Part shown: one piece after another, positions 2,667 to 63,168 of the stretch
Layout: each line of letters opens with the position of its first letter
Position numbering within the stretch: the stretch's first letter is position 1
DNA from: an uncultured delta proteobacterium
GTDB taxonomy: Bacteria > Desulfobacterota > Zymogenia > Zymogenales > Zymogenaceae
Assembly: GCA_963792965.1 (NCBI GenBank)
Contig: CAWBYW010000016.1
Coordinates: 115,925 to 179,924, forward strand
DNA length: 64,000 bases
Direction of reading: 5' to 3'
Notes under the pieces: generated by a model
The model's database searches: none
What the model was told of the DNA's origin: nothing
The model's input: only the letters and a program-made list of their open reading frames with translations
Position numbers and translations under genes: made by a program

Positions 2667-3985
2667 CTATTTCAATCGTTTGACGATCTCAAAGACTTTT
2701 GCCAACGCCTCCCCCTCGTCGAACGTGAGGATCTTCCCCCAGTGATGGACGACCCGCCCCCCACGATCGTGGTCTTGACATCGAGCCCCCGCGCGGAATA
2801 GACGAGGTGGGACTCGTACGAGAAGAGCGGCGCGGCATGGGGACGCGACAGGTCGACGACGATCAGGTCCGCGGCCATGCCCGGCGCAAGGCTCCCCACC
2901 TCCGTTTCCAGCCCGAGGGCCTCGGCGCCAAGGAAGAGCGAGAGCGAGAGGACGGTTTTGGCGTCCATCTGGGCGGGGTCCTTCGAGGCAAGCTTATGCC
3001 CCTTGGCGCAGAAGTCCATCTCGTAGAAGAGGTCCTGGCGGTTGTTGGAGGCCGGCCCGTCGGTGCCGAGCCCCACAGGGATGCCGGCCGCCAACATCGC
3101 CGGCACCGGGGCAAGGCCGTTGCCGAGCTTGGCGTTGCTGCCCGGGCAGTGTACCACGGACGCGCCGTACTCGGCCAGGATATCGATCTCCTCGGGCTCG
3201 ACGTAGACGGCATGCACCGCGATAAAGGTATCGGAAAGAATACCCTCCCGCGCGAGGAGGCGCACGGGTGTCGCCCCGTATTTCTGCGTGACCGTCTTCA
3301 CCTCCGCCTCCGACTCGGCAAGGTGGGTGAAGAGCGGCACTCTGTACTCGTCGCACAGCTCCTTTACCGTGCGGTATGTCCGGGGGGAGGCGGTGTAGGG
3401 GGCGTGAACGAAGAGGGCCGGGGTCACGAGGCCGCCGCCCTTCTTTTTCGTTTCTTCGAGGAATTGCCTGAGGACCGATAGGCGCCCGCCGTCGTCCTTC
3501 CACTGGGGCTGCGGCCCATCGATGACTCCCTGGGCCGAGATCGCCCTTATCCCCGCGGCGCCGAAGGCCTCGGCGGCAGAGGAGGCAAAGAAATAGGCGT
3601 CGGCGCACGTGGTGATGCCCGAGCGCAGCATCTCGGCGGCCGACACGAGGCTCCCCCAGTAGACCATGTCGCGTCCCATGAGTTTTTCTTCGGCGGGTAT
3701 GATCCGATTAAATAGCCAGGTGTCAAACGGGAGGTCATCGGCATAGCCGCGCAGGACCGACATGGCGGCGTGGGTGTGGCCGTTGATGAGCCCCGGCATG
3801 ACGAGGTCGCCCCCGGCATCTAAGGTGCGCTCGGCCTCAAATCCGTGGCCGATCTCGAATTCGTCGCCGACCGCGACAATCACCCCGTCTTTTATGCAGA
3901 CGATGCCGCTCGGAAAGCGGCTCCCCCGCTCATCGAAGGTGAGGACCGGACCACCCTTGACGATGAGGTCGACCTTCTCGGTCAT
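2667..3985 (-). CDS. mtaD: MtaD-type amidohydrolase (5-methylthioadenosine/S-adenosylhomocysteine deaminase family), 3' end frameshifted as assembled
   Basis: Metal-binding motif GLINGHTHAAMSVLRGYADDLPFDTWL and the HAESEAE and TDG segments are present. The ORF-track product (2672..3985) turns to low-complexity sequence after ...VKTTIVGG. Adding one base to the C run at 2757-2762 gives ...IVGGRVVHHWGKILTFDEGEALAKVFEIVKRLK with a stop at 2667, which parallels the C-terminus of the paralog at 4974..6302. Confidence 0.8.
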
Positions 3986-4380
3986 ACGACCACCGACTCG
4001 TCATCGGCGCGCCAGGCCGGGTCAACGATGCAATAGAAGACGAGGTCGGAATTGCCCGTGTTCTCGGTCCACTGCAGCGCCCCGGGGGGGACGTAGACGA
4101 GGCTGCCCGCCGAGACCTCGGCCGCCTCATCATTCACGTGCATGATGCCCCGTCCCTCGGTGACGATGAAGACCTCGGAGGACGATTTCAGCCGGTGGGG
4201 CAGGTTCCGGGAGCCCTTCGGCATGCGCGCGACGGCGATCGAGTAATGCGTCGCGACGGGGTCCTTCATGGGCGACATGAGCTCCTTGATCGGCGTCGTG
4301 TCGGCGGCCGTGATGCCCGGCGTCTTATGCGGTTCAACGATTTTCATTTGTTCTACCCGATTAGAGGATTTTGGTGACAC
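3982..4380 (-). CDS. cupin domain protein
   Basis: Cupin_2-like core (HRLKSSSEVFIVTEGRGIMHV...VYVPPGALQWTEN). Its stop overlaps the mtaD start in an ATGA overlap at 3982-3985. The ORF-track start is GTG at 4380. The ATG at 4347 is more likely, because 4367-4391 belongs to a repeat element. Confidence 0.65.
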   Translation of the reverse strand: MSPKSSNRVEQMKIVEPHKTPGITAADTTPIKELMSPMKDPVATHYSIAVARMPKGSRNLPHRLKSSSEVFIVTEGRGIMHVNDEAAEVSAGSLVYVPPGALQWTENTGNSDLVFYCIVDPAWRADDESVVV

Positions 4381-4453
4381 TCTACTTAATTAAGACTCTA
4401 TAAATTGACGGGGTAGATCTCAATTAAAATTAAGCATGGTGTCCCCCTAATTC
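4367..4453. repeat. imperfect palindromic element, degenerate copy of the 4888-4971 element
   Basis: The arm at 4428-4453 (AATTAAGCATGGTGTCCCCCTAATTC) matches the 4946-4971 part of the 4945-4971 arm at 23/26 positions. The arm at 4367-4391 (GATTTTGGTGACACTCTACTTAATT) is its imperfect inverted partner. Spacer is about 36 nt. The element abuts the DUF3795 stop codon. Confidence 0.6.
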
Positions 4454-4860
4454 TACTTCCTTCTCCCGCACTCAGAACAAACACCTTTATGAACACAAAT
4501 AGTCCCACCACAATCGGGACATGTCCATCTTGATTTTTCGTTTAGTAGAAATTTTGTAATACCCAATTTTTCAATATTCCCGAGATTTTCAATCATGCTC
4601 ATAGTATACTTTGTTCTATATCTTTTGTCCAAATGCTTCAATGTATCGCAGGGAAAATCATTGCATTGAAAACAAAACGTTGCCTTTCCATTCTTGAGGA
4701 CTTCGCAGATTTTGATTTTGCATGTGGTGCGGGTAATCGGCTTGCCAACATCCGAGCCTCTGCATCCACGACATTTGTTACTTTCTCTCAGATATGCTAA
4801 GCAAACACCGCAATTCATCCCACAGGGGGCGATGAGCAAAGCTGCGCCTAATGATGCCAT
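4453..4860 (-). CDS. Cys-rich DUF3795-like protein (putative zinc-binding)
   Basis: 135-aa ORF with CGxxCxxC, CxxC and CPDCGG...CSECG clusters typical of DUF3795. It is visibly AT-rich compared with both neighbours and is flanked by the two palindromic elements. Confidence 0.65.
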   Translation of the reverse strand: MASLGAALLIAPCGMNCGVCLAYLRESNKCRGCRGSDVGKPITRTTCKIKICEVLKNGKATFCFQCNDFPCDTLKHLDKRYRTKYTMSMIENLGNIEKLGITKFLLNEKSRWTCPDCGGTICVHKGVCSECGRRK

Positions 4861-4887
4861 GCTATTACTATATATTATTTCCCAAAA

Positions 4888-4971
4888 GAATTAAGGGGAC
4901 ACAATACTTAATTCACTTTTCTTTGCTTATCCTGAAGGCCCGTTGAATTAAGTATTGTGTCCCCTTAATTC
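4888..4971. repeat. perfect 27-bp inverted repeat with 30-nt spacer (long hairpin, possible terminator or mobile-element end)
   Basis: GAATTAAGGGGACACAATACTTAATTC (4888-4914) is the exact reverse complement of 4945-4971. The element begins 2 nt after the stop (4974-4976) of the upstream minus-strand deaminase gene. On the minus-strand RNA it is followed by UUUUGGG. Confidence 0.8.
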
Positions 4972-4973
4972 GC

Positions 4974-6302
4974 TTACCCCACCGACTTCCTCACCCTCCC
5001 CGACAGCTCCCGCGCCTTAGCCATGATGTCGGCCGCATCCGCCTTCGTTAGCTTGCCGTCGTGCACCAGCACGTCCCCGTTGACCAGCACGTCCCGCACG
5101 TCGGTGGATTTTGCGGCGTAGACGAGGTGCGAATAGGGGTTGTAGACAGGCGTCAGGTGGGGCTTATTGAAATCGACGATGATGAGGTCGGCCTTCTTGC
5201 CGACGGCGAGCGTCCCCACCAGCTCACCGAGCCCGAGGGCTCGCGCGCCGTTTTTTGTGGCGGTCTGGAGGACGGTCTTTGCCTCCATGTGCGTCGGGTC
5301 CGCATCGTAGACCTTGTGGAGCTTTGCCAGCGTATCCATCTCCCCGAAGAGGTCAAGGTCGTTGTTGCTGGCGCATCCGTCCGTGCCCAGCCCCACGACG
5401 ATCCCCCGCCCAAGGTACTTGTGCACCGGCGCCCATCCCGAGGCGAGCTTCATGTTGCTCTCGGGGTTGGTGACGACGGTAACATTCCTTTCACGCATGA
5501 TCTCCATCTCGGCATCATCCACCCAGACGGCGTGGAGCGCCGTGAATCTCTCGTTGAGGACGCCCAGGTCGTCCAGATACTCAAACGAGCTCTTGCCGTG
5601 CTTCTTCTTCACGTCCTCGATGTTTGCACGGGACTCCGCCACGTGGACGATGCAGCGCACCCCAAACCCGTCCGAAATCTCCTTTGCCCGCACGAAGAGC
5701 TCCGGCGAGCAGGTGTCCAGCGCGTGGGGCTGGATGGAGGGAACGATAAGGGGGTCGCTCTGCCACTTCTTGATGAAGTTTTCCGTATACTCGAATCCCT
5801 TCTCGATGGGCCCGTAGTTCGGGGAGGGAAAGTCATAGAGCACCTCGCCGAGCACCCCCCGCATCCCCATCTCTTTGGCGGCTCTCGCCGCCGAGTCCTC
5901 GAAGAGGTACATGTCACAAAAGGTCGTCACCCCCCCGAGCAGCATCTCCGCGCAGGCGAGCTTCGTCCCCCAGTAGACGAAGTCGTCGTCGAGGTTGGCC
6001 TTCTCGGCCGGAAAGATATAGTCGCATAGCCACCGCTCCAGCGGCAGGTCGTCGGCGATCCCCCGAAAGAGGCTCATGGCCGCATGCGTGTGCCCGTTGA
6101 CCAACCCCGGCATCACGACGCATCCCGTCGCGTCAATCTCGGTTCTTGCCGCCCAGCGACGGGCGGCATCGCTCCGTTTCCCCACGAAAGCGATCGCGTC
6201 GCCTACGACCACGACCGCGCCGTCTTCAATCGGGACCCCGTCCTCCATCGTCAGGACGATCCCGCCCGAAATAACTACGTCCGCGCCGATTCTCTCCGTC
6301 AT
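4974..6302 (-). CDS. MtaD-type amidohydrolase/deaminase, second paralog
   Basis: This is the C-terminal 442 aa of ORF 4974..7271, starting at MTERIGADVVISGG (ATG 6300-6302). Motifs GLVNGHTHAAMSLFRGIADDLPLERWL, HVAESRANIE and GLGTDGCASNN are present. Its ATG overlaps the TGA of the restored PNP frame (ATGA). Confidence 0.8.
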   Translation of the reverse strand: MTERIGADVVISGGIVLTMEDGVPIEDGAVVVVGDAIAFVGKRSDAARRWAARTEIDATGCVVMPGLVNGHTHAAMSLFRGIADDLPLERWLCDYIFPAEKANLDDDFVYWGTKLACAEMLLGGVTTFCDMYLFEDSAARAAKEMGMRGVLGEVLYDFPSPNYGPIEKGFEYTENFIKKWQSDPLIVPSIQPHALDTCSPELFVRAKEISDGFGVRCIVHVAESRANIEDVKKKHGKSSFEYLDDLGVLNERFTALHAVWVDDAEMEIMRERNVTVVTNPESNMKLASGWAPVHKYLGRGIVVGLGTDGCASNNDLDLFGEMDTLAKLHKVYDADPTHMEAKTVLQTATKNGARALGLGELVGTLAVGKKADLIIVDFNKPHLTPVYNPYSHLVYAAKSTDVRDVLVNGDVLVHDGKLTKADAADIMAKARELSGRVRKSVG

Positions 6303-7163
6303 TCCTCTTTTGTTTCTCCTATCCGCCGGATTACCGCGGCGATCAGTCTGATGAGGTCCGGACCGGTCCTCTTCTCCCGTGGCGATGATATCGTCGATCA
6401 GGATGGGAGCCATGGCGTCGGGGAGGTTAACGTTGGCCACGAGCGAAAAGCCCAACACCCGCATCCTCACGTGCGCCGCGGTGATCACCTCCATAACCGT
6501 CGACATGCCCAGGGCGTCGGCACCGAGGCCGCGAAACATCCTGGTCTCGGCCGCCGTCTCGAGGCTCGGGCCCAAGACCCCGATATAGACCCCCCGGTTG
6601 ACGTGGATGCCCAGCCTGAGCGCCTCCTCTTCGGCGATCTCGATGAGCTCCCGATCATAGGCCTTCGTCATGTCGGGAAAGCGGGGGCCCAACGTGTCGA
6701 GATTGGGGCCGACGAGCGGGTTACGGCCCGTGAAGTTGATCTGGTCGTGGATAACCATGATCTCCCCCGGCCGAAAGAGCGGATTGAGGCCGCCGGCCGA
6801 ATTGGTGATGATGAGGGTGTTGATCCCAAGGGCGAAGAGGGCCCGGACGGCAAAGGCGATCTCGGGGGCCGTATACCCCTCGTAGAGGTGGAACCGGCCC
6901 TCCATGGCCGCCGTCTCCACCCCGGCGATCCTCCCGATATGCAAAATCCCCGCATGACCCTCCGCGGTCGAGACGGGGAAGTGGGGGATCTCCCCATACG
7001 GGATCGAAACCTCCGTCTCCATGACCGCGGAAGTACCGGAAAGTCCCGTGCCGAGGATCACGGCCACGCGCGGACGGAGGTTTGTCTTGATGAGGATGTG
7101 ATCGGCCGCCTCGTGGATCTCTTTGATCGCTTTGTCTGCATCGCGGGGGGGCTGGACTGTCAT
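6299..7163 (-). CDS. purine nucleoside phosphorylase family (PunA/MTAP-like), frameshifted near the 3' end as assembled
   Basis: N-terminal part of ORF 4974..7271 from MTVQPPRDADKAIKEI (ATG 7161-7163). PNP motifs are present: VAVILGTGLSG, HFPVSTAEGHAG, MEGRFHLYEGY, ITNSAGGLNP, GPSLETAAE, GADALGMSTV. A one-base shift near 6370-6376 restores ...ATG(K/E)RTGPDLIRLIAAVIRRIGETKEE with a stop at 6299. Confidence 0.75.
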
Positions 7164-14275: not shown

Positions 14276-14733
14276 CGATATCGATTCTCCTTTTCCGTTC
14301 TTTTTTGTTTGTCTTCCAGCATCTTTGCCGTACAGTAGGTGTCGGCCAGCTCACAGGCCTTCGTAATGTCGGCATCGGCCTTATCGGCAAGCCCCATCAT
14401 GTTGTAGCAGCCGCCCCGCTGGTAGAGGGCCTCGGCGTCGTTCGGGTAAAAGCCCAATACCATGGAGAAATCATCCGAGGCCTCTTTCCATTTGAAAAGC
14501 TTTTTATAAGAGAGCCCCCGGTTGAAATAGACGGTCGACAGATCGATCCCCTCTGTCGTTGTGCCGGAAGATGCCGCCTCGATTACGCTCGTCCACAGCT
14601 CGATCGCAGTCCCATAGTCGCCCCTTCTGAAGTGCCGCTGGGCATCGTCATTGACATCTTTAACGCTGGCGGCCGCGGCTATCGAGGCCGCCAGCGAGAG
14701 GATCAGAAGAGAAACACATACGCGCTTTTTCAT
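14272..14733 (-). CDS. small secreted TPR-like protein
   Basis: The signal peptide MKKRVCVSLLILSLAASIAAAAS begins at the internal ATG of ORF 14272..14805. TPR-like helices are present (YGTAIELWTSVIE, YFNRGLSYKKLFKWKEASDDF, AEALYQRGGCYNMMG). Its stop overlaps the HD gene start. Confidence 0.55.
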   Translation of the reverse strand: MKKRVCVSLLILSLAASIAAAASVKDVNDDAQRHFRRGDYGTAIELWTSVIEAASSGTTTEGIDLSTVYFNRGLSYKKLFKWKEASDDFSMVLGFYPNDAEALYQRGGCYNMMGLADKADADITKACELADTYCTAKMLEDKQKRTEKENRYR

Positions 14734-15026
14734 GCTCTGCACCCGCATCGGTAAGATCGGCCTTCTCCCCGGCAATATCTGGTAGTTATCCACAATAATA
14801 TACACAACATGTGGATAGAATAGCGAAAAACAGGGGAAAATTGTTACTTATCATGATGATACGCTGAAATTGTTTTATGATACTGTATTGTGAGAGTATA
14901 GTCAAGCTTTTCCCTTGACGATGACTCCTGCTTATGATATTTAATTATATTTATACACACGGCACTGTTCGGTCTGACACACGGCGTGCGGTATCTTTTC
15001 GGGCCGACGGCTCGATGGGGTCAACG

Positions 15027-61931: not shown

Positions 61932-62472
61932 CCAGTCTACCTGCTTCGCATTCTTGTATGGTTTCAAGGCCCACCCTGTATACGTGAGGGTACGAATCAT
62001 ACTGGTTTCGCCTCTGCCTGTCAAGGGATAACGACCCTCCCGCCCAACGCTCGCGACGTGCCGCCGGAATACAGGAATATGAAGGAAAACAGGAATGGCG
62101 GGGAAAGCCGCTGCCGCACACAACCGACCGCATGCAACGGTACGGAAGATGACCTGCATCAGTGGAACAAAAGTGCAAGTTATTTTGCATCCTGGCAACA
62201 TCTCGTTATCATTAGAAATATCGGTATCTGTTCCTGACAGGATAAACTCGATGAAACACCGTTGAAACATGCATGCAACGCCTCAGAAACCGCGTTAAGA
62301 TGCTGTGCGATAACCTGCTGTAATCATTATAGTATTTGGCCACGGACATCGGGTGGATCGTGCCCGCATATAGGCATGGATATTGCTTAATATATGGCCA
62401 GACACATACGGTTTGGTATATGAGATCTCCGGCAACCGTGTGTATTCATGCAACGAGAGAAAGGAGGAGAGA

Positions 62473-63168
62473 ATGAATAAGAAAAGACTGATGGTGCTTG
62501 ATAACGATTCCCAATTCGTCGGCTCTCTCAACACCGCGTTGGGCAAGACCTATGACGTGCTGTGGGTCAAGGAAGTCGCCGCCGCCGTCCAGACCATTCA
62601 TTCATGCGAGGCGGACGTCATCCTCGTCAACTTCGCCGTCGGCGTCGAGGGGGGGTTCTCCGTAATCCGGGAGGCAAAGAAGTGGGCGATCCCATCGGTC
62701 GTCGTCACCCATCTCTCGACGGAGGAGATGGCCATCGAGGCCCTCAACTCCGGCGTCTCGTATTATATCAAGAAGCCGGTCCTTCTGGAGGACCTGGCAA
62801 AAGCCGTCAACCGGGTCGCGGGCATCCCGAGCGCCGATATGGATACCATCGAGCGCGTGAGATTCTTCATCGTAGAAAATTACATGAAAGACATCTCGGT
62901 CAACGACCTTTCGGACTCGGTCGGCATCAGGCGGCAGAAGATCTTCTACCACTTCAAGAAGCGGTACGGCAAGGGGATCAAGTCATATCTGCGCGACATC
63001 AGGATGCAGAAGGCGCAGGAGTTGCTGGAGACCACCGACCTTGCGATCTACCGTATCGCCAAGGCCGTCGGATATAATCACTTCGGCTATTTTTGTCGGG
63101 AATTCAAGCGCCTCTACCACCTGACCCCCAAAGAGATCAGGAGGGGCCGCTACCAGCAGGCCAGCTGA
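62473..63168 (+). CDS. receiver-like domain plus AraC-type HTH transcriptional regulator
   Basis: ATG at 62473 after AAGGAGGA. N-terminal CheY-like fold (MVLDND...VILVNF...YIKKP) and a C-terminal HTH_18 pattern (IAKAVGYNHFGYFCREFKRLYHLTPKEIR). Confidence 0.7.
   Translation: MNKKRLMVLDNDSQFVGSLNTALGKTYDVLWVKEVAAAVQTIHSCEADVILVNFAVGVEGGFSVIREAKKWAIPSVVVTHLSTEEMAIEALNSGVSYYIKKPVLLEDLAKAVNRVAGIPSADMDTIERVRFFIVENYMKDISVNDLSDSVGIRRQKIFYHFKKRYGKGIKSYLRDIRMQKAQELLETTDLAIYRIAKAVGYNHFGYFCREFKRLYHLTPKEIRRGRYQQAS

Follow-up and report, generated by a model that had tools for sequence, protein, structure and literature searches.

In the 64-kb stretch of DNA analysed here (the window), two long palindromes that enclose an AT-rich foreign gene are best read as paired terminal inverted repeats (TIRs) marking the home slot of a TIRYT transposase, whose gene the foreign one now replaces. 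The probability of this reading is put at about 0.78. Each arm of the palindromes, GAATTAAGGGGACACMATACTTAATTC, is a TIR of the clade of Y1/HUH tyrosine transposases named TIRYT (Di Nocera 2013, PMC3733652), RAYT Group 1 (Bertels 2017, PMC5581495) or TnpA-Y1 subclass 2.1 (Quentin 2018, PMC6006769). The enclosed ORF, a DUF3795 gene, is cargo in place of the transposase gene.

The palindromes that flank the DUF3795 gene

The perfect dimer of a 27-nt TIR (4888..4971, no strand assigned) consists of the arm GAATTAAGGGGACACAATACTTAATTC at 4888-4914 and its reverse complement at 4945-4971, separated by a 30-nt loop. The repeat search of the window delimited the same object as two arms of 28 nt (4888-4915 and 4944-4971) that are 100% complementary across a gap of 28 nt, and no shuffled window yielded a comparable match. 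The dimer folds at -43.4 kcal/mol (z -6.8) as RNA of the - strand, at -44.5 kcal/mol (z -10.7) as RNA of the + strand and at -26.6 kcal/mol (z -10.2) as single-stranded DNA. Its arm matches the arm profile HMM with an E of 1e-9. Two nucleotides separate the dimer from the deaminase stop, and TTTTGGG follows it on the coding strand. This REPIN/MITE-like unit forms the left-hand repeat of a transposase slot ("TIRtron"). Three relatives (L122, L018 and L205) have a dimer with the same arms and diverged loops at the equivalent position.

The second palindrome, a decayed TIR dimer at 4365..4454 (no strand assigned), falls in the gap that separates the DUF3795 stop from the start of the cupin gene. 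Its arms, 4365-4391 and 4427-4454, are 74% complementary as delimited by the repeat search (4365-4391 and 4428-4454). The inner arm, which reads GAATTAGGGGGACACCATGCTTAATTT on the - strand at 4427-4453, agrees with the perfect arm at 23/26 positions (88%) and is significant in the arm profile HMM (E 5e-5 over 4428-4453). The outer arm (4365-4391) is a variant, ..GTGTCACCAAAATCC, that agrees with the perfect arm at 78% and by itself is not significant in that profile (E 6.4); its form GTGTCACCAAAA also occurs at the equivalent locus in L206 and L018. As RNA the decayed copy folds no better than shuffles (z -0.5 to -0.95), and it is a relic. Its arm subtype, GAATTAG..CCATG, is unlike that of the right-hand dimer of relatives, GAATTACGGGGACAC.., so it may have come in with the cargo and not be orthologous to theirs.

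The repeat search and the arm profile detected no copies in the 64-kb window beyond these two dimers. Rfam gave chance-level matches only, both for the window at the gathering threshold and for an 800-nt region at E<=1, and a tRNA scan of the window found none. The earlier note on this DNA had described most of these features: a perfect inverted repeat of 27 bp with a 30-nt spacer, placed 2 nt past the deaminase stop and followed by UUUU, a degenerate copy whose inner arm matches at 23/26, and no other copy in the 64 kb. All were reproduced, as were the AT-rich segment between GC-rich cupin and deaminase genes and the Cys-rich, DUF3795-like ORF that are treated below.

A repeat family dispersed over many phyla

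Positions 8-15 of every arm are GGGGACAC, an instance of the GGGGWSAS consensus of TIRYT TIRs (PMC3733652, PMC6006769). On single-stranded DNA the arm is an 8-bp hairpin with this motif in the loop, and two inverted arms with a spacer of ~30 nt make up a REPIN/MITE-like unit. The arm starts with GAATTAAG and ends with CTTAATTC, and the tetranucleotides GTAG and GTGG are absent from both feet.

The pattern GAATTARGGGGACACNATRCTTAATT occurs in at least 118 stretches in genome_contigs; among the matches listed, these belong to ~60 assemblies (MAGs) labelled as ~14 phyla, with a locus GC of 0.375-0.70. The 27-mer is found in both orientations and as single arms, dimers and clusters. A fuzzy scan returned 235 arms, several per genome, which form 84 dimers (modal loop 29-30 nt) and 67 single arms. 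The free position 16 has the same base in both arms in 80/82 dimers, and dimers with the same loop lie at separate loci of one genome (L028, L042 and L115; L046, L060, L088 and L116). Judged by these matches, the arms belong to a repeat family with dispersed copies. The repeat had no match in viral contigs or in plasmids. A search of plasmids with the TIRYT protein returned only relatives at 33-40%, and a vector for cross-phylum spread was not found. A literature search with the arm sequence gave irrelevant eukaryotic matches only. DNA between neighbouring arms has low GC in 3/21 cases and high GC in 2/21, with a mean shift of -0.025; a general AT-richness of inter-arm DNA is unsupported by these values.

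Association with a tyrosine transposase gene

At ~11 loci an arm adjoins an ORF of ~180-223 aa (~214-223 aa when full-length), and TIRYT-type genes flanked by the repeat stand in the orthologous slots of L122, L018 and L205 and at ~8 other loci. ORFs that read away from the arm start 17-120 nt past it. The proteins share 49-74% identity among themselves and match Pfam Y1_Tnp with E values from 1e-11 to 1e-14. They contain the motifs NHVH and WQ and the tyrosine motif Y[IV]ExNP (YIELNP, YIEMNP or YVELNP), similar to the set listed for subclass 2.1 in Table 1 of PMC6006769; NCBIfam REP_Tyr_transpos scores the transposase of the relatives at 69-71 bits, under its cutoff of 80. This recurrent adjacency in sequenced loci establishes that the repeat and the transposase gene are associated. 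Quentin et al. reported no REP-like sequences near subclass 2.1 genes (PMC6006769).

The gene flanked in a TIRtron is recognised by NHVH, W[EQ] and YIELNP in a product of ~238 aa with a C-terminal tail. No transposase gene of the TIRYT clade was found in the 64-kb window, and one is present in the slot of relatives; the locus in the window thus counts as a derivative without transposase and not as a complete TIRtron.

States of the deaminase-cupin slot in relatives

The slot is bounded on its right by a conserved cupin gene (3982..4347, - strand) and on its left by a conserved purine-nucleoside-phosphorylase / MTA-SAH deaminase gene (4974..7163, - strand), whose product in the window is a fusion of 729 aa; in relatives two overlapping genes take its place. 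The order in L122 is deaminase, dimer, TIRYT, dimer, cupin and amidohydrolase. L018 and L205 have the same arrangement with an added AT-rich TPR gene and the remnant of an arm, and the TPR genes of these two close relatives are mutually unrelated. L204 has lost TIRYT by deletion and retains two arms and a promoter scar with no gene. L207 has a single dimer in a 95-bp spacer, an empty site. The window itself has dimer, DUF3795 and dimer, and its homology to the TIRYT-bearing relatives ends exactly at the foot of the left dimer. Conserved neighbours and equivalent dimers show that these are orthologous slots in alternative states. Set beside the states in relatives, the arrangement in the window therefore indicates that the transposase gene was replaced by a horizontally acquired gene.

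The TIRYT genes of L122 and L018 are 81% identical, which equals the identity of their deaminases. In neighbour-joining trees, which are star-like (77-90% identity), genomes that carry TIRYT do not form a single clade. An ancestral transposase that was lost several times is the favoured, though unproven, history; alternatively, the transposase could have entered a pre-existing dimer more than once. The earlier note did not recognise that a tyrosine transposase, gone from the slot in the window, has its home locus here.

Origin of the DUF3795 gene

The DUF3795 ORF (4453..4860, - strand) encodes a Cys-rich protein of 135 aa that matches DUF3795 (PF12675) at 36.6 bits (cutoff 22.6, E 6.4e-9). A search for homologues found 1757, and a PDB sequence search with the protein gave no match. 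The ORF is AT-rich (GC 0.41, compared with 0.35-0.39 in its nearest relatives), with a GC3 of 0.40 versus 0.83-0.88 in its neighbours. GC over 4400-5000 is 0.39-0.42 versus 0.60-0.65 on both sides, and the lowest-GC point of the 64 kb lies here. The TAG stop abuts the inner arm of the decayed dimer. At the other end, an AT-rich leader of 27 nt (4861..4887, - strand) starts precisely at the perfect dimer's foot, in the place where the transposase gene of relatives has its TTGACAT-N17-TATATACT promoter region. Leader and ORF together form a foreign segment of 434 nt exactly between the feet of the two dimers. At the nucleotide level the gene is 85% identical to one that an AT-rich Phycisphaerae MAG carries without any repeat, and the median GC of 80 metagenome relatives is 0.44. 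Composition and affinity both indicate that the DUF3795 gene was horizontally acquired and is of foreign origin.

The two dimers and the gene could have moved from another genome as one self-contained, non-autonomous transposon, with TIRYT acting in trans. Members of the repeat family do bound the gene exactly on both sides, and the right-hand dimer differs in subtype from that of relatives. Each of the unrelated AT-rich cargos in L018 and L205 also has a TIR-like right end of its own, and the family is known in MAGs of Planctomycetota, the phylum of the nearest DUF3795 relatives. This origin is nevertheless improbable. Relatives that lack DUF3795 already have the perfect dimer directly after the deaminase stop (2-30 nt), and a second copy of the unit was not found in any searched sequence. 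Arms were found within 2.5 kb of the gene in 0/80 loci of DUF3795 relatives (51-82% identity), and none at the nearest relative, L120, so the flanks were not brought by the gene as a regular cassette. Nor does the same count support DUF3795 as a recurrent cargo of the repeat.

The interpretations offered in the earlier note fared unevenly. Of its horizontally acquired single-gene cassette, the acquired insertion stands (GC3, 85% identity, empty site) and the recurrent cassette does not (0/80). Its MITE-like hairpins correspond to the dispersed MITE/REPIN-like family. The checks it proposed gave positive results for a dispersed repeat (the stretches in genome_contigs), for an empty site in relatives (L207, with L204 lacking any gene) and for the deviating composition of 4453..4860. 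Its third suggestion, a pair of unusually long terminators, fails for the reasons given next.

Terminators, assembly and integrons

If the palindromes had no part in mobility and served simply to insulate the gene, as long intrinsic terminators or as hairpins that stabilise mRNA, the position of the perfect copy just past the deaminase stop, its stability as RNA (-43 kcal/mol) and the UUUU after it would all be accounted for, and REP-type hairpins are on record as stabilising 3' ends (PMC3733652). Against this very unlikely explanation, the 27-mer occurs in ~60 genomes of many phyla among the matches listed, in both orientations, singly and in clusters, and beside a Y1 transposase gene. The orthologous dimers in L122, L018 and L205 are followed by ATTGACAT and not by a U-run. 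A consensus terminator scan flagged neither copy, the loop of 28-30 nt compares with 3-8 nt expected of an intrinsic terminator, and the decayed copy has no more fold than its shuffles. The present-day role of the perfect dimer is probably no more than that of a stable 3' hairpin on the deaminase transcript, and a terminator effect may be a by-product of the dimer.

Even less credible is an assembly artefact, in which a fragment of an AT-rich organism was joined through a repeat common to members of the community. A repeat identical across unrelated genomes could tangle an assembly graph, and the jump in composition is abrupt. However, the configuration of the window recurs with the same two junctions in L119 (Logan ERR11596056), which was assembled independently from another run; it differs from the window by 9 single bases over 913 bp, so it does not derive from the same reads. 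The right-hand junction, moreover, lies in a degenerate and unique dimer that is unable to bridge as a repeat. An integron-type gene cassette with attC-like sites, suggested by the foreign composition and by a single short ORF with an imperfect palindrome of 85-90 bp on either side, can practically be dismissed, as GTTRRRY/RYYYAAC core sites are absent from the arms, the slot of no relative holds an integrase but a Y1/HUH transposase is found there instead, and the palindromes are dispersed singly through genomes and not arrayed. A CRISPR reading was considered and rejected on the features tested.

A possible route for the exchange

On the preferred reading, a TIRYT home slot with its transposase replaced, the intergenic slot between deaminase and cupin is where TIRYT has been inherited vertically (a TIRtron) in a Zymogenaceae-like deltaproteobacterial lineage, and the transposase gene with its promoter has gone from the lineage of the window. 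We infer that the exchange was either transposase-mediated or due to recombination between dimers. In the preferred order, foreign DNA would first be captured at the foot of one TIR, a step with parallels in L018 and L205, by single-strand cleavage and joining catalysed by the transposase or by recombination with an incoming TIR-flanked segment. The transposase gene would then be lost through recombination of the flanking dimers, compare L204 and L207. Cleavage at the TIR foot by TIRYT is proposed by analogy with IS200/IS605 and with E. coli TnpA-REP.

A broader and distinctly tentative idea, for which the odds are poor, is that TIRtrons are sites of gene capture and exchange. Either the resident Y1/HUH transposase would cut and rejoin the near-universal 27-nt TIR on single-stranded DNA, or the TIR would act as portable homology, so that foreign single genes could dock at the foot of a dimer and be swapped between phyla. 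The deaminase-cupin slot would be one such platform seen in several states: empty, with transposase only, with transposase and either of two unrelated AT-rich TPR genes, or with DUF3795 for transposase. No description of cargo turnover at a TIRtron was found in the literature on TIRYT and subclass 2.1.

Among REP-type tyrosine transposases no group is larger or more widespread than the TIRYT or Group 1 RAYTs, and to our knowledge no function or substrate is known for them. They now gain a concrete candidate substrate, an almost invariant 27-nt repeat common to many phyla. In addition, orthologous loci show the transposase gene variously present, lost by deletion, joined by foreign genes or exchanged for one, and the breakpoints coincide with hairpin feet. 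It becomes possible to test directly what the enzyme takes as its substrate and whether slots of this kind capture DNA. For annotation, long palindromes on both sides of an AT-rich orphan gene need not signify a cassette or a pair of terminators; they can mark what is left of a transposase locus.

Comparison with known systems

Like the bacterial MITEs RUP, NEMIS and ERIC, the dimer is a non-coding intergenic unit (84 bp) with inverted ends (27 bp) that can fold in transcripts. Unlike them, its ends belong to a Y1/HUH system and not to a DDE transposase, and no target-site duplication is seen here.

With IS200/IS605 and its transposase-less derivatives (PATEs) the system shares an HUH/Y1 enzyme, end hairpins that are presumably recognised on single-stranded DNA, and the existence of non-autonomous forms without transposase. 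The enzyme here, however, is of the Y...NP class 2 with a C-terminal extension and not of the Y...Q class 1, the same repeat stands at both ends in place of distinct left and right hairpins, and there is no tnpB.

The likeness to REPIN-RAYT systems (Bertels & Rainey 2011, PMC3116915; Group 2/3) is closer. Two inverted short palindromes with a spacer form a hairpin unit, the shared loops indicate that the dimer multiplies as a whole within a genome, and the Y1 transposase is single-copy, vertically inherited and itself flanked by the repeat. The differences are that GT[AG]G is lacking at the hairpin foot, that the enzyme of the relatives is of Group 1 and not Group 2/3, that the window has few copies (one perfect and one decayed dimer in 64 kb), and that REP families are normally species- or genus-specific whereas this arm is common to several phyla.

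The closest counterparts are the TIRtron/TIRYT families (PMC3733652; PMC6006769; PMC5581495), which share the GGGGWSAS core, a partly self-complementary arm, its occurrence as singles, dimers and clusters, and, in the slot of relatives, a Y1 transposase of ~216-223 aa with NHVH, WQ and YIE(L/M)NP flanked by the arm. The slot in the window departs from them in holding a foreign DUF3795 gene and no transposase, and the repeat departs from them in that the whole 27-mer, and not just the 8-nt core, is almost invariant over ~14 phyla among the matches listed.

Paired palindromes flanking a DUF3795 gene

Two palindromes bracket a single ORF in the spacer (hereafter the slot) between an MTA/SAH deaminase gene (4974-7163, minus strand) and a cupin gene (3982-4347, minus strand). 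One is a perfect inverted repeat with arms of 28 nt each, 28 nt apart (4888-4915 / 4944-4971). The other (4365-4391 / 4428-4454) is a decayed second copy with arms that are 74% complementary; compared with the perfect arm, its inner arm is identical at 23/26 positions and its outer arm at 78%. These are the perfect and degenerate elements described in the earlier note, which was also right that the 64 kb hold no additional copies. Shuffled versions of the window yield no arm match. As RNA, the perfect dimer (two inverted arms and their loop) has a folding energy of -43 to -44 kcal/mol (z -6.8 and -10.7); as single-stranded DNA it reaches -26.6 kcal/mol. RNA folding of the decayed copy is no better than that of shuffles. 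Against a profile of 227 arms, the decayed copy's inner arm is significant (E 5e-5) and its outer arm alone is not (E 6.4).

The ORF (4453-4860, minus strand) matches Pfam DUF3795 (E 6e-9), and its stop codon abuts the inner arm of the decayed dimer. The segment between the palindromes, already noted as AT-rich, has the lowest GC of the whole window, and the ORF has a GC3 of 0.40 versus 0.83-0.88 in three neighbouring genes. The next-lowest GC spots lie at ~14600-15000 and ~62100-62500 (0.445-0.47 in 400-nt windows).

A dispersed repeat family associated with TIRYT transposases

The pattern GAATTARGGGGACACNATRCTTAATT, scanned against one genome per species, matched at least 118 stretches. The assemblies behind the matches listed number about 60, every one a MAG, and are labeled Deltaproteobacteria/Desulfobacterota, Omnitrophota, Nitrospinota, Nitrospirae, Alpha- and Gammaproteobacteria, Planctomycetota, Elusimicrobia, Bacillota/Clostridia, Actinomycetes, SAR324, Hydrogenedentes, WOR-3, and Aminicenantes; the GC of these repeat-bearing loci ranges from 0.375 to 0.70. 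With six mismatches permitted, at least 235 arms are found, as 84 inverted dimers and 67 single arms, and dimer loops span 1 to 78 nt with a sharp mode at 29-30 nt. From one genome to the next the loops mostly have unrelated sequences; therefore the spacing of the dimer, and not the sequence of its loop, seems to be constrained. In some genomes dimers at separate loci share a loop, and the dimer therefore multiplies as a unit. The pattern's free position (A, C or G) is identical between both arms in 80/82 dimers. A lone arm forms an 8-bp hairpin (GAATTAAG/CTTAATTC; -3.6 kcal/mol, z -8.2) whose loop presents GGGGACAC.

Beside many copies the outer arm end is partially repeated in tandem (GAATTAAGG(GG) or GTGTCCCCTTAATTC, two to three times; L007 ~395-520, L017 ~3165-3220, L033 ~5390-5500, and also L020, L037, and L073). 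The pattern resembles the outcome of nested insertion, or of successive rounds of cutting and rejoining, at one set position in the arm, possibly the cleavage or target site. Two toxin-antitoxin-like gene pairs, assigned by eye from translation, are enclosed by adjacent arms: a HigB/HigA-like pair in L029 (515-1123) and an RHH plus PIN-like pair in L013 (1467-2112). Both segments have a somewhat higher AT content than the surrounding locus.

At about 11 loci among the matches listed, an ORF of roughly 180-223 aa (full-length, ~214-223 aa) adjoins an arm and, where directed away from it, starts 17-120 nt past it. The products are 49-74% identical pairwise, match Pfam Y1_Tnp, and reach 69-71 bits with the NCBIfam model "REP-associated tyrosine transposase", short of the model's cutoff of 80. 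All have NHVH at residue 59 and WQ, and in every one but L097, the shortest at 181 aa, a tyrosine motif of the form Y[IV]ExNP (YIELNP, YIEMNP, YIETNP or YVELNP) follows at residue 119. Together these motifs come near to those defining TnpA-Y1 subclass 2.1 (PMC6006769, Table 1), which Quentin et al. equate with RAYT Group 1 of Bertels and TIRYT of Di Nocera et al. The inverted repeats on either side of TIRYT genes have GGGG[AT][CG]A[CG] in common (PMC6006769, PMC3733652), to which GGGGACAC of the arm conforms; these terminal inverted repeats (TIRs) may also be self-complementary, and single, dimeric, and clustered copies are known (PMC3733652). The adjoining Y1 transposases, their motifs, and the fit to the TIR consensus therefore identify the window's palindromes as TIR dimers that belong to a TIRYT family. 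In MAG MFD05674.bin.2.3 the same 27-mer flanks two TIRYT genes (L064 2756-3397, CAWELC010000011.1; L122 7481-8152, CAWELC010000009.1) that are only 68% identical, so diverged paralogues can share one repeat family.

The slot in relatives

Relatives of the window's deaminase (77-85% identity) lie on contigs with a conserved order of phosphorylase, deaminase, slot, cupin, and second amidohydrolase, and the contents of the slot vary. L207 represents an empty site: its spacer measures 95 bp and contains a single dimer. On the P0137 contig the spacer is 115 bp long. The L122 slot holds a perfect dimer, TTGACAT-N17-TATATACT, a TIRYT gene (223 aa), and a variant dimer before the cupin gene. L018 and L205 share this layout, followed by an AT-rich TPR gene (GC 0.26-0.35; L018 1503-2323, L205 6075-6797), a TIR remnant, and the cupin gene; their DNA is 90% identical up to the foot of the variant dimer, 82% identical from the cupin start, and unrelated between, and they therefore carry two different cargoes. 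The L204 slot is geneless, with two arms and a TIRYT promoter remnant in 206 bp. The window and L119 have a perfect dimer, a 27-nt leader, DUF3795, and the decayed dimer before the cupin gene. TPR genes also follow the deaminase in L206 and L123. The window's 4974-7163 ORF (729 aa, identical to P0121) joins purine-nucleoside-phosphorylase and MTA/SAH-deaminase domains, which in all relatives examined are two genes with a 4-nt overlap (cf. L122 5140-7329, L204 3141-5329).

In the window, L122, L018, and L205 the left dimer lies 2-30 nt past the deaminase stop. Its arms show at most one base difference, its loop is exactly 30 nt in all four (window 4915-4944), and the loops are mostly unalignable save in the close pair L018/L205. 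The slot is the home of TIRYT in relatives, and homology between the TIRYT-bearing ones and the window stops exactly at the outer foot of the left dimer. TIRYT and deaminase are each 81% identical between L122 and L018. Neighbour-joining trees pair L122 with the window, and L018 and L205 with the transposase-less L207 and L204. The simplest reading of these comparisons is that TIRYT was inherited vertically at the slot and lost several times; because the trees are star-like, it is favoured rather than proven.

Origin of the DUF3795 gene and probable replacement of the transposase

The window lacks a transposase gene of the TIRYT clade, and in its slot a foreign gene lies exactly between the dimer feet. 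Among 1757 detectable DUF3795 homologues, the nearest outside the lineage are from Phycisphaerae and Sedimentisphaerales-type MAGs (76-82% identical). The L120/L121 gene, in an AT-rich genome (locus GC 0.44), has 85% DNA identity over 385 nt and no repeat beside it. Of 80 more relatives drawn from metagenomes (identity 51-82%, median GC of the loci 0.44), none (0/80) has an arm within 2.5 kb, seven mismatches permitted. The gene was thus imported recently from an AT-rich donor and is no regular passenger of the repeat. The horizontal acquisition proposed in the earlier note holds; a recurrent cassette carried by the repeat is not supported. A self-contained TIR-gene-TIR transposon would account for a right-hand dimer whose arm subtype differs from that of relatives, but is weakened by the 80 armless relatives and by the dimer already being at this site in relatives.

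Replacement of TIRYT would have involved its loss by recombination between the flanking dimers, which are direct and inverted repeats of each other at once; L204 and L207 look like such deletions. Foreign DNA would have been taken up at a TIR foot, apparently three times at this locus (DUF3795 and two unrelated TPR genes). A Y1/HUH enzyme could have catalyzed the uptake; as the analogy of IS200/IS605 and E. coli TnpA-REP suggests, it would have cut and resealed single strands at the feet of hairpins (PMC6006769). Alternatives are ordinary recombination, in which the incoming fragment was flanked by TIRs, and illegitimate joining. An 11-nt run, AAAAAGAAATA, is common to the 3' ends of TIRYT (..CCTAAAAAGAAATAG; L018 1395-1420, L205 5975-5995) and Phycisphaerae DUF3795 (..GGAAAAAAGAAATAA; L120 5390-5410), compared with GAGAAGGAAGTAG at window 4453-4470; it could be chance or microhomology used in replacement. 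Both ORFs begin ATGGCA..ATTAG.

The pair of long terminators considered in the earlier note is contradicted by the repeat's wide distribution and its association with transposases. The U-run after the perfect dimer is not conserved in relatives, and a consensus terminator scan did not flag the dimer, which today probably does no more than form a stable hairpin at the 3' end of the deaminase mRNA. L119, assembled independently, has the same configuration, and the right-hand junction is unique; both observations contradict an assembly chimera. An integron cassette is contradicted too, since the arms have no attC-type core sites and the slots of relatives contain no integrase. The window and L119 differ at nine positions in 913 bp, seven of them at window 4560-4807 within the 408-nt DUF3795 ORF; the arms show no difference and the flanks are mostly identical. 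Five of the seven are non-synonymous and two synonymous, small numbers that suggest weak constraint on DUF3795.

Comparison with known repeat systems

The window's palindromes resemble REPINs in architecture and differ from canonical REPs in lacking the GT[AG]G foot. TIRtrons (TIRYT genes flanked by TIRs) and TIR repeat families are of a known kind (PMC3733652) but barely studied. Over 21 segments between neighbouring arms, TIR-bounded DNA showed no general tendency to be foreign; therefore the TIRtron as a gene-capture platform stays a minority reading. Quentin et al. detected no repeats near TnpA-Y1 subclass 2.1 genes (PMC6006769). New here are a full 27-mer that is near-invariant over many phyla, against just 49-81% identity among the enzymes; orthologous slots that together display gain, loss, and replacement; and a foreign gene occupying a transposase-less slot.
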